From: Thermodesulfobacteriota bacterium
GTDB lineage: Bacteria; Desulfobacterota_D; UBA1144; Nemesobacterales; Nemesobacteraceae
Reading direction: 5' to 3'
Assembly: GCA_965209225.1 (NCBI GenBank)
Contig: OZ242379.1
Span: forward strand, 1,741,289 to 1,805,288
Length of the DNA stretch: 64,000 nt
Below the pieces are notes generated by a model, which was not told the DNA's origin, did not search any database, and worked only from the letters and a program-made list of their open reading frames with translations. Positions 55,765 to 58,108 of the stretch are shown one piece after another. How positions within the stretch are numbered: position 1 is the stretch's first letter; the number at the start of each line of letters is the position of its first letter. The translations under genes and the position numbers were made by a program.

Positions 55765-56862
55765 TTACCTTACTTCTATGTTGTATTCAGCGGCGGCGGC
55801 AAGCTCCTCTTCTGAATACCTCACGCATCTGGTTTCTCCCTCTTCCCGTTCAAGGCGAACCAGAACGCCTGAAACGTCTTCTGTCTCGGTTGCGGCCTGC
55901 GCGAAGCCTCTTACGCAGTCAAAACTGTGGGTCGTCGCGAAAACCTGGGTATTGTTTTCCCGAGCGGTCCGAAGAATCATTCTCCAGAGCTTGTGCTGAG
56001 CCGTGTAGTGAATCCCGTTTTCCGCTTCATCAATGAGAAGGAATCCGCCGCGGCAGTTCGCAAGAGCGATAGCGATACCGAACAGCCTGACAGCTCCGTC
56101 ACCGAGGCTTTTAAGGGGGACGGGGCCGTGCTTTCCAATCCTGACCACAGCCCGCCTGCCTCTCCAGCGACCTGAAGACCCTTCTTCCCCGATCATGGCT
56201 ATGCGGTCCACCGGATTATCGAGGACTATGTTAAGGGCATTGATAGCGAGGTTCTCGTCTTCAGTGAGCGTGATCTCGTCCCAGAGTTCCGCGATTGTCC
56301 TGTTGGACAAAATTTCCGGGCCCAGCCACTGCGATTTCAACGCTTCTGTGTGCTCGTTTTTGAGGGTGTCGCCTTGGATACCCCTTTTTCTTCTCCAGTT
56401 ATTCTCGGACAGACCGAAGATCAGACTGTGTTCACCCTGAAAATAAACCCTGAGGATGGGAACGTCCTTGTCTGGGAGGTCGTCTTTGTCATCTGGGTCG
56501 CCCAGCTCTATTTCGAGTTTTCCGGTGTCATTTTCCGCACCGATTTCTATTCGTGTTCCCATGGAAGGTTCCCGGCCATGAAAAAGCGCCTTGAAATCCA
56601 GGAAATTATCTTTCTCGCTGTCTTTTTTAACGCCGGAGATAAACTCTTCGCGTCCCGCGATTAATTCGGCAAGCACGGATTCATCCGCGCGGGAAGAGTA
56701 TATTTTTACTGCTTCAAGGATCGATGTCTTCCCCGTGCCGTTTTTTCCAGCAAACAGGTTTACGCGGCCTAATTCCCGAATTGAAAGCTTGTCAAAACAC
56801 CTAAATCCCCTTATTGATAAGTGAGGGATATGAAGCCCGTTATTTGGTAGTTCTTTAGGCAT
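55765..56862 (-). CDS. ABC-type (AAA_21-like) ATPase
   Basis: Walker A AGKNGTGKTSILEA, Walker B/D-loop GGFLLIDEAENGIH, H-loop ATTHS. 365 aa. Overlaps the CARF gene's stop by 8 nt. Confidence 0.75.
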   Translation of the reverse strand: MPKELPNNGLHIPHLSIRGFRCFDKLSIRELGRVNLFAGKNGTGKTSILEAVKIYSSRADESVLAELIAGREEFISGVKKDSEKDNFLDFKALFHGREPSMGTRIEIGAENDTGKLEIELGDPDDKDDLPDKDVPILRVYFQGEHSLIFGLSENNWRRKRGIQGDTLKNEHTEALKSQWLGPEILSNRTIAELWDEITLTEDENLAINALNIVLDNPVDRIAMIGEEGSSGRWRGRRAVVRIGKHGPVPLKSLGDGAVRLFGIAIALANCRGGFLLIDEAENGIHYTAQHKLWRMILRTARENNTQVFATTHSFDCVRGFAQAATETEDVSGVLVRLEREEGETRCVRYSEEELAAAAEYNIEVR

Positions 56863-58108
56863 GACTTAACCTTAATTCCAGTTGTGGCCAATATGGAATG
56901 CACGAGTCGGAAATATCCAGAGATGAGAGTACCGACTGCAGAAACGATTCAAAAGATTCTTTTTTCACAGGCACCAAACCATGAGCCAACAGCGAACCAT
57001 TCCGCCCGCTCAAATGGTTTTTAAGCCGGTCATGAATATGCGCTTTTTCAGAAATTGCCTGGTTTTCGCTAAACTCCAAAACCCTGAACAGATTCTGAAC
57101 ACCGAGCCTGTATATATCATCTTCAGGTTCGCCAAGCATGGTTTTGATGCGTTCGTGACTGCCAACGGGAAGAGATTCCAAAGGGAGCTTTCCCAGTTCA
57201 GCGCCAAACGCTTTCTTTACAAGTTGCTGACCACGCAGCTCGACAGCCCTGTAGAGTCTTCCGGTGGCGTCATCATAACGCGACTGCTTTGCTCTTCTGT
57301 CGGCGTTGGCAATAAGTTCAAGAAGAGTTGCATTGCCGGCAGTTTTATTGTTGTTTTTGTTCACTTCTTCATTAACAGACTTCCAGTGCCTATCGAGAGA
57401 CGCCAAATCTTCATTCTTCAGATTGCAATACTCAAGCGAAAGTTCCAGCGTGTGTTTCCAGCGGTGAAGCTCACTGGTGGCTGCCTTAAAGTTAAACTGG
57501 TCGGCAAAACCGAGAGCCTTGGCAAATCCGGCGAATGCCTCTAACCGAGTCCGAAGAGGTTTATTGCACTTCTGTGCAGCATCTTGAAGTATCTCAGCTG
57601 CGGAATCAGCATGGAATCCTTCCAATAATCTGTTGGCACGTTCAATATTAGGTATGGCGTATGTAATCCACGGATTCTGACATTTAATCATTTTTTCGGA
57701 GCCTGTTATAACTGTACCGAGGTTGTCCGAATCGCGCCTAGAACCTCCCACGTAAGTAAAATTATGGAAATGTTCAACTGCGGCAAGCATAAGTGCGGCA
57801 GACATGGCTTTAGTGCCGCCCGTTATATCCACCGCTACGTCCTCAGCTCTTAATTTGTATTCCTTGAGCCATTGCTCTATACGAATCCGAATCTGCTGAT
57901 AGCAAAGGCCTATGTCTTGGTGGTCAGGCACTTCTGAATACCCATACTGGGGAATGTAGTTCATCTCGGATAACACTTCATCTTCCACCTTTGACCTTGA
58001 ACCAGCAGAAACCACGAATAAAACGTAATCAGGGTTGCCATCAGACAACATCTTTTTTGTCGGCTCGGACGAGCCTCCAACGCTGATGATCATTCCACGA
58101 AAATTCAT
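56855..58108 (-). CDS. CARF-domain protein with C-terminal HEPN-like R-x6-H motif (Csm6/Csx1-like cOA-activated effector)
   Basis: CARF hallmarks …MIISVGGSSEPT… and …DITGGTKAMSAALMLAA…. C-terminal …SGRNGSLLAHG… fits the HEPN R-N-x5-H motif. ATG at 58108 overlaps the csm4 stop (ATGA). Confidence 0.65.
   Translation of the reverse strand: MNFRGMIISVGGSSEPTKKMLSDGNPDYVLFVVSAGSRSKVEDEVLSEMNYIPQYGYSEVPDHQDIGLCYQQIRIRIEQWLKEYKLRAEDVAVDITGGTKAMSAALMLAAVEHFHNFTYVGGSRRDSDNLGTVITGSEKMIKCQNPWITYAIPNIERANRLLEGFHADSAAEILQDAAQKCNKPLRTRLEAFAGFAKALGFADQFNFKAATSELHRWKHTLELSLEYCNLKNEDLASLDRHWKSVNEEVNKNNNKTAGNATLLELIANADRRAKQSRYDDATGRLYRAVELRGQQLVKKAFGAELGKLPLESLPVGSHERIKTMLGEPEDDIYRLGVQNLFRVLEFSENQAISEKAHIHDRLKNHLSGRNGSLLAHGLVPVKKESFESFLQSVLSSLDISDSCIPYWPQLELRLSHA

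Follow-up and report, generated by a model that had tools for sequence, protein, structure and literature searches.

A predicted CARF-HEPN RNase of the Csm6 family coupled to an apparently reduced type III-A cassette beside type I-G genes in a Thermodesulfobacteriota genome

The window analysed here, a 64,000-nt stretch of a Thermodesulfobacteriota bacterium genome (GenBank assembly GCA_965209225.1, contig OZ242379.1, positions 1,741,289 to 1,805,288), carries on its minus strand a csm6/csx1-type gene (56855..58108, including the stop codon) encoding a 417-aa CARF-HEPN protein of family TIGR02710, identified from the list of open reading frames (ORFs) and hidden Markov model (HMM) searches and located at the end of a short type III CRISPR-Cas cassette. 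The product is very probably a non-specific HEPN RNase of the type of Thermus thermophilus Csm6 (TtCsm6), activated by cyclic oligoadenylate (cOA), probably self-limiting, and acting as effector of the cassette directly upstream. This reading follows from the family HMMs, the predicted fold, the conservation of functional residues, the gene linkage and the presence in the cassette of a GGDD Cas10 lacking an HD domain. The cyclic oligoadenylate cA4 seems the likelier specific activator, judging from sequence comparison. We infer the RNase and ring-nuclease activities, dimerisation and ligand identity of the protein.

The csm6 gene and its junction with csm4

From the ORF list and the sequence, the CARF-HEPN ORF begins with ATG (58108-58106) and ends with TAA (56857-56855), and an identical 417-aa protein (P0001) is already deposited in NCBI/ENA. 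The start codon overlaps the TGA stop codon of csm4 within the tetranucleotide ATGA (58105..58108): on the minus strand the junction reads ...GGAAGGATTTTCACCAATGAATTTT, with ATG and TGA sharing ATGA in ...CACCAATGAATTTT, and an AAGGA Shine-Dalgarno-like element lies 9 nt upstream of the ATG. The ATGA junction is also present in related loci L001-L006, L009, L010 and L012 (see below). An alternative start, GTG at 58126, would extend the ORF and was rejected because the homologues and P0001 all begin with the ATG and the ATGA overlap recurs in relatives. Over 54700-64000, scans for promoters and terminators gave scores at background level and were uninformative on operon boundaries.

Family assignment and predicted structure

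The protein matches TIGR02710 (NCBIfam; ‘CRISPR-associated CARF protein’) over its full length (184.3 bits vs a curated cutoff of 83.9, E = 3.4e-54), residues 16-395 corresponding to profile positions 2-379 of 384, while residues 251-395 match the Pfam ‘Csm6 HEPN domain’ PF09670 (92.8 bits vs a cutoff of 27, E = 2.3e-26). PADLOC CARF1--CARF_HEPN and Csx1 models match the whole length (E = 1e-64 to 1.8e-69; CARF_HEPN 1.8e-69). A match to Pfam CARF_Card1 was sub-threshold, and scores fell short of the cutoffs for the cA6-type Csm6 model TIGR02672 (19.9 bits vs 150) and the Crn1 ring nuclease model NF040581 (18.3 bits vs 125; the protein has a fused HEPN domain). Relatives are numerous, with 323 matches in a word-indexed search and, in an exhaustive search of 50%-identity representatives, 2221 with E <= 1e-3 and 247 with E <= 1e-30. 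On these profile matches the gene encodes an ordinary member of the large, known Csm6/Csx1 family TIGR02710, which PGAP-type annotation would already name, and shows no family-level difference from TIGR02710/PF09670 proteins. Within TIGR02710 it falls in a sub-clade of at least 45% identity with a specific tie to a short-Cas10 cassette.

An AlphaFold2 monomer model was generated from alignment A1, containing 52 sequences with 40-90% identity to the query (mean pLDDT 91, predicted TM-score (pTM) 0.78). In the model, and in agreement with Foldseek and profile matches, a CARF domain with a Rossmann-like beta/alpha fold (about residues 1-146; 57671..58108, minus strand) has strands at residues 5-9, 28-34, 54-60, 91-94, 116-122 and 138-144, with helices between them. 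It is followed by a helical linker domain (about residues 147-250; 57359..57670, minus strand) of five helices (147-163, 167-178, 183-203, 207-223 and 232-250), aligning with the middle helical (helix-turn-helix, HTH) region of TtCsm6, and by an all-helical HEPN domain (about residues 251-400; 56909..57358, minus strand), which corresponds to the PF09670 match.

All of the top eight Foldseek matches in the Protein Data Bank (PDB) are T. thermophilus Csm6 chains (E = 2.7e-13 to 1e-11, ~415-440 aligned columns), followed by Csm6' of Streptococcus thermophilus (St) and Csm6 of Enterococcus italicus (Ei) and then by the CARF-only matches Cam1, Cad1, Csa3, Can2 and Crn1. The alignment profile likewise matches TtCsm6 at E = 1.7e-9, and the Sso2081 ring nuclease at E = 1.4e-3 over profile positions 6-112. 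TtCsm6 (TTHB152; PDB 5FSH, 8JBB, 8JBC and 8JH1), the best match by both structure and profile, has the same CARF/helical linker/HEPN architecture, although at ~464 aa it is longer than the window protein by ~45 residues. By analogy with the TtCsm6 dimers in 5FSH and 8JH1, the window protein would form a homodimer.

Functional residues of the CARF and HEPN domains

Conservation was counted over the 52 homologues in alignment A1. CARF motif I, MIISVGGSSEPT (residues 6-17; 58058..58093, minus strand), places G11-G12-S13 after strand beta-1 and is well conserved (G11 in 51/52 homologues, G12 in 45/52, Ser or Thr at position 13 in 49/52 and P16 in 51/52; position 14 is mostly Pro). This motif was equated with G58-T59-S60 of TtCsm6 by position only, as no sequence alignment was obtained between the window protein and the N-terminus of TtCsm6 (motif I, T81). 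CARF motif II, DITGGTKAMSAALMLAA (residues 94-110; 57779..57829, minus strand), lies after strand beta-4 and aligns with D131-L-T133-S-G135-T-K137 (DxTxGTK) of TtCsm6; all 52 homologues share D94, T96, G97, T99 and K100, and 50 have G98. In TtCsm6, motif I comprises G58/T59/S60 and motif II T133/G135/K137, and K137A abolishes cA4 binding (PMC10897365).

The HEPN catalytic motif, SGRNGSLLAHG (residues 367-377; 56978..57010, minus strand), has the arrangement R369-x6-H376 (R369-N370-x5-H376) and aligns with GRNSALLVHG of TtCsm6 (R415/N416/H422), where mutation of any one of the three catalytic residues abolishes RNase activity (PMC10897365). No homologue departs from R369, S372 or H376, and 50/52 have N370. 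In the model R369 stands at the end of the helix formed by residues 350-374, with H376 directly after it. Residues R271, R272, Q275, D279, R284, Y286, R287 and E290 in the first HEPN helices are also invariant.

Pairwise alignment with TtCsm6 equates T133, G135, K137, Y161, N164 and E179 of its CARF domain with T96, G98, K100, Y119, G122 and E138 of the window protein, and E332, R415, N416 and H422 of its HEPN domain with E290, R369, N370 and H376. Among these, Y119 is invariant, like E290, and E138 is found in 50/52 homologues. In TtCsm6, Y161 and N164 function in cA4 cleavage, E179 recognises an adenine and E332 keeps R415 in an inactive state (PMC10897365). Thus motif II (DxTxGTK), the tyrosine equivalent to Y161, E179, E332 and the R-N-x5-H motif are identical in the two proteins, and the ligand-binding, allosteric and RNase apparatus of TtCsm6 appears, from the alignments, to be retained. 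Of the residues for ring cleavage, the Tyr is kept (Y119) and the Asn is changed to Gly (G122).

An earlier note on this DNA, made without database searches, had proposed that csm4 and csm6 overlap in an ATGA arrangement, that MIISVGGSSEPT and DITGGTKAMSAALMLAA are CARF motifs and that SGRNGSLLAHG contains the R-x4-6-H motif of HEPN RNases. The overlap is present in the sequence and conserved in related loci, all three peptides are found in the 417-aa protein, and their reading is borne out by the alignment of motif II and of R369/N370/H376 with TtCsm6 and by the near-invariance of G11 and of Ser or Thr at position 13 in motif I. CARF and HEPN assignments are likewise supported by TIGR02710 and PF09670 scores above curated cutoffs, with which PADLOC agrees, and by a confident CARF/helical linker/HEPN fold with Csm6 proteins as best PDB matches. 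At the level of alignment and secondary structure, the R...H pair does lie in the helical HEPN region.

Near the C-terminus, W407-P408 (56885-56893, corresponding to residues 406-408; consensus IPRWP) is invariant in the 52 homologues and lies outside the Pfam HEPN match.

The type III cassette upstream of csm6

csm6 belongs to a tightly packed, co-directional string of minus-strand genes, in which Cas10-Csm2-Csm3-Csm4-Csm6 make up a five-gene cassette. The GGDD Cas10 is encoded three genes upstream of the CARF-HEPN gene in the same string. cas10/csm1 (60207..61685; TIGR02578, 271.6 bits vs 170) encodes only 492 aa, with two CxxC pairs (CEIC at 150 and CRNC at 172) and a GGDD cyclase motif in palm-2 (residues 306-309; 60759..60770, minus strand), recognised from sequence and alignment. 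The protein starts at the palm-1 sequence ‘DFSGIQ’ and in the alignment its residue 3 pairs with residue 232 of Thermococcus onnurineus Csm1 (ToCsm1; 6kc0); therefore the whole HD domain is absent. The ‘GGDD-only Cas10’ of the earlier note is thus an accurate description, and this Cas10 probably makes only the alarm molecule, cOA. An HD domain is recognisable in only 39% of type III loci and 65% of III-A loci, the remaining 61% and 35%, respectively, being without it (PMC11229360), and an HD-less, cyclase-positive Cas10 is therefore common among known loci.

The gene for the Cas11 small subunit, csm2 (TIGR01870, 40.2 bits vs 30.6), spans 59707..60258 on the minus strand if it starts at a GTG or 59707-60207 if it starts at an ATG. 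Translation probably begins at the ATG at 60207 rather than the GTG at 60258; this ATG shares TAATG with the cas10 stop codon and has GGAGG upstream. csm3 (59028..59705, minus strand; TIGR02582, 155.8 bits vs 90) encodes the 225-aa Cas7-type backbone subunit and keeps the Asp in a GGSD34NPV motif. By equivalence to Csm3 D32/D33, we take D34 to be the Asp that cleaves target RNA. csm4 (58105..59049, minus strand; TIGR01903, 72.5 bits vs 55; PADLOC Csm4, 2.7e-51) encodes the 314-aa Cas5-type subunit.

Cas10, Csm2, Csm3 and Csm4, shared with type III-A (Csm) modules, all score above the III-A equivalog cutoffs. Unlike such modules, the window cassette lacks csm5 and cas6, has a single cas7-type gene (csm3; the related locus L009 has two csm3-like genes) and encodes a Cas10 of only ~490 aa. 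No ORF for Csm5 or Cas6 was found in the cassette from the ORF list or with NCBIfam and PADLOC HMMs, and the tight packing leaves no room for one. Because these ORFs are missing and Cas10 has no HD domain, the cassette is, on its gene content, best described as a reduced III-A derivative. TtCsm6, by comparison, is encoded with a complete III-A system, whereas the window csm6 is coupled to csm4 of a reduced cassette lacking HD and Csm5.

Upstream of cas10 are genes of a type I-G system. csb2 (61708..63318, minus strand; TIGR02165, 277 bits vs 45) encodes a type I-G Cas5-Cas6 fusion, and csb1/cas7g (63221..64000, minus strand), encoding the type I-G backbone, runs off the window end, its frame remaining open to position 64000 (phmmer vs Csb1 of the closest relative, L001, 5e-158; L001 Csb1 itself matches TIGR02570).

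Related loci

A set of 79 loci encoding CARF-HEPN relatives was collected from species-representative genomes. In all 13 loci with at least 45% identity (L001-L012 and L014), csm4 is directly upstream of the CARF-HEPN gene, usually with an ATGA junction. These loci come from Spirochaetia, Latescibacterota, Rhodothermales, Opitutales, Terriglobia and Dehalococcoidia metagenome-assembled genomes. Where the contig is long enough the short Cas10 is also present; most copies are intact, with ~490-550 aa, while a few are split or longer. The closest relative, L001 (90% identical), keeps the layout of the window, including cas3g and cas8g2 upstream.

Of the 12 loci that have long flanks, 10 carry type I-G genes (cas3g, cas8g, csb1 and csb2) directly upstream of the cassette, and in 8 of those 10 cas4g/cas1g plus cas2 follow csm6. 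The complete nested order, cas3g-cas8g-csb1-csb2-[cassette]-cas4g/cas1g-cas2, is present in L002, L005, L008, L010 (652-14863), L011 and L012. Repeat scanning, which left out L011 among the nested loci, covered six loci and detected a large CRISPR array downstream of csm6 in five of them; the repeats are 36 nt long and end in ...ATTGAAGC or ...ATTGAAGA. Typically, then, the reduced cassette of csm genes and csm6 lies nested in a type I-G locus, between csb2 and cas4g/cas1g.

More distant family members (~30-44% identity) are found after Csm modules with a full-length Cas10 (e.g. L020, L039 and L040), after type III-B Cmr modules (L013 and L018) or standing alone, as in L016 (10001-11257), beside amidase and molybdopterin oxidoreductase genes. 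Such varied contexts are what one would expect if the family served as promiscuous ancillary effectors of type III systems.

The CRISPRCasTyper preprint recognises as a category hybrid loci in which two interference modules are combined with a single adaptation cassette. Such composite loci share an adaptation module and array; in the relatives described here, the cassette interrupts the I-G locus between csb2 and cas4g/cas1g. The literature searched on I-G/III composites yielded only general statements on hybrid loci and HD-less Cas10s, with no description found of the nested I-G/III arrangement or of a III-A variant lacking Csm5 and HD, although this is weak evidence of absence. The nested arrangement, with a Csm module lacking Csm5, Cas6 and HD, is the only aspect that we consider even mildly unusual.

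Proposed function and alternative explanations

In the proposed mechanism, a CRISPR RNA (crRNA)-loaded reduced Csm complex (HD-less Cas10, Csm2, Csm3 and Csm4) would bind a complementary foreign transcript, whereupon the palm/GGDD cyclase of Cas10 would turn ATP into cyclic oligoadenylate, most probably cA4. A Csm6 homodimer would take the ring into a composite CARF pocket (G11-G12-S13; T96/G98/K100), and a conformational change passed on via the helical linker would free R369 from E290 and assemble a composite HEPN site (R369/N370/H376). This site would degrade RNA non-specifically, so that the infected cell is slowed or killed, while the CARF pocket probably also cleaves the ring slowly (Y119, equivalent to Y161 of TtCsm6), switching the enzyme off.

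Several observations weigh against this reading. The protein is only ~18-19% identical to TtCsm6, with whole-chain TM-scores of ~0.5 that may reflect a different domain orientation; any inference of ligand specificity (cA4 vs cA6) is weak for these reasons. Within the HEPN model, confidence is lowest in the loop carrying H376 (residues 371-380, mean pLDDT 67). The equivalent of N164 is G122 and motif I reads G-S-S/P vs G-T-S in TtCsm6, so that ring cleavage is predicted with less certainty than RNase activity. No CRISPR array was detected in the 64-kb window with Tandem Repeats Finder or by direct-repeat searches, phmmer queries of the window with I-G Cas4/Cas1, Cas2, Cas3g and Cas8g as well as Csb1 matched only Csb1, and cas6 and csm5 are also absent from it. 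The earlier note's ‘complete cOA signal/effector pair’ accordingly stands as regards the HD-less GGDD Cas10 and the linked CARF-HEPN gene, and must be qualified as regards completeness, the array, cas1/cas2, cas6 and csm5 all being missing from the window.

Since the window has no array, cas1/cas2, cas6 or csm5, the Csm cassette must obtain its crRNA from another source, probably the adjoining type I-G system via Csb2, and this neighbour may also supply the Cas6 function. I-G Csb2 is known to cleave I-G repeats, leaving a canonical 8-nt 5' handle (PMC9638904). It is possible, and we put this forward tentatively, that the four-subunit Csm (without HD, Csm5 or Cas6) plus Csm6 is a distinct, recurrent signalling add-on in I-G loci that borrows Csb2-processed crRNAs, whose 8-nt handle, AUUGAAGC, resembles the canonical type III tag; in the window genome an AbiL-like system would have replaced the 3'-terminal adaptation module and array. 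If so, the nested cassette would give a DNA-targeting I-G system a second, RNA-sensing layer of cOA signalling and abortive infection using the same spacers.

One alternative to the cA4 assignment is a protein of the same architecture that answers to cA6 (or cA5/cA3) and behaves like Csm6 of E. italicus or S. thermophilus. These cA6-activated proteins share the domain order and HEPN chemistry at 11-13% identity, and there are significant Foldseek matches to Ei Csm6 (6tug, query-normalised TM-score (TMq) 0.52, cA6-binding) and St Csm6' (8pe3). We nevertheless regard this as improbable, given the score of only 19.9 bits against TIGR02672, the cA4-activated TtCsm6 as best match by both sequence and structure, the resemblance of the CARF domain to the cA4 ring nucleases and effectors Sso2081 Crn1, Cam1, Can2 and Csa3, and the invariant or nearly invariant counterparts of the cA4-contacting TtCsm6 residues K137, Y161 and E179. 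A protein with a catalytically dead HEPN domain, acting only as a cOA sponge, ring nuclease or regulator, is hardly credible: the CARF domain weakly resembles Crn1 ring nucleases (Sso2081 and Sis0455), with which it shares its fold, motifs I and II and a weak NF040581 match, but these are stand-alone CARF proteins of ~180 aa without HEPN, and in the window protein R369, H376 and E290 are invariant, and N370 nearly so, in alignment with residues essential for TtCsm6 RNase activity.

The gaps in the window could also mean that the gene is intact within a non-functional or orphaned remnant that makes no cOA, the protein being idle or answering cOA from another type III locus of the genome. Consistent with this, the array and cas1/cas2 are absent, an AbiL-like pair and a SNF2 helicase take the place of cas4/cas1-cas2-array in both the window and L001, and trans activation of effectors between loci has been proposed (PMC11229360). 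On the other hand, none of the nine co-directional genes that run from csb1 through the DUF3226 gene is disrupted, and they are so tightly packed that stop and start codons overlap or almost touch; all catalytic residues are kept, the 90%-identical L001 preserves the layout including cas3g and cas8g2, and an array may stand upstream of the I-G genes, past position 64000; we therefore think a remnant unlikely. That the CARF-HEPN protein works with the AbiL-like ATPase/DUF3226 pair instead of the type III cassette is suggested by an 8-nt overlap of the csm6 stop and ATPase start, an arrangement repeated in L001. The pair is, however, beside the CARF gene in none of the other 77 loci while csm4 is upstream in every locus of the clade, and it matches a stand-alone candidate system (PADLOC PDC-M38A/B) and AbiLi, so that this partnership has very little probability. 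An effector of the TtCsm6 type serving the upstream cassette remains the preferred reading.

Taken alone, the gene represents the correct annotation of an uncharacterised family member and adds little beyond a cOA-signalling arm in this genome. Of somewhat wider interest is the recurrence, inside I-G loci across distant lineages, of a compact, signalling-only type III cassette with a coupled Csm6, which is well suited to asking whether type I and type III effectors share crRNAs and how few subunits cOA synthesis needs, and might yield small cA4-responsive RNase tools.

Downstream genes and other features of the window

The AbiL-like pair consists of an AAA_15/AAA_21 ATPase (55765-56862, minus strand; PADLOC PDC-M38A 1.1e-82, AbiLi 7e-51), the start of which overlaps the csm6 stop (ATGCCTAA), and a DUF3226 protein (55108-55761, minus strand; PADLOC PDC-M38B 1.4e-36). 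Only the window and L001 have it beside csm6, the ATPase of L001 being broken into two ORFs, and it sits where cas4/cas1-cas2-array stand in other relatives. A functional link between csm6 and the pair was rejected, as the pair is confined to the window and its closest relative, and we read it as a neighbouring defence system of the same island, not a Csm6 partner.

A gene for a SNF2-family helicase of 1112 aa that carries a SWIM zinc finger at its N-terminus (51520-54858, minus strand; PADLOC DpdE 9.8e-180, and ZorD-type models) lies 250 nt downstream of the AbiL-like pair, and the same gene follows the pair in L001. Further from the cassette, a 592-aa ORF (46794-48572) contains an exact 33-nt direct duplication, GATGAGGATGGCAACGATATTCGTATTACCGAT, with a spacing of 42 nt (47871-47945), which repeats the peptide DEDGNDIRITD. 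A 435-aa minus-strand ORF (49113-50420) contains a perfect 21-nt tandem repeat of 2.1 copies (49240-49283), and the peptide EMEEESS is repeated near its C-terminus.

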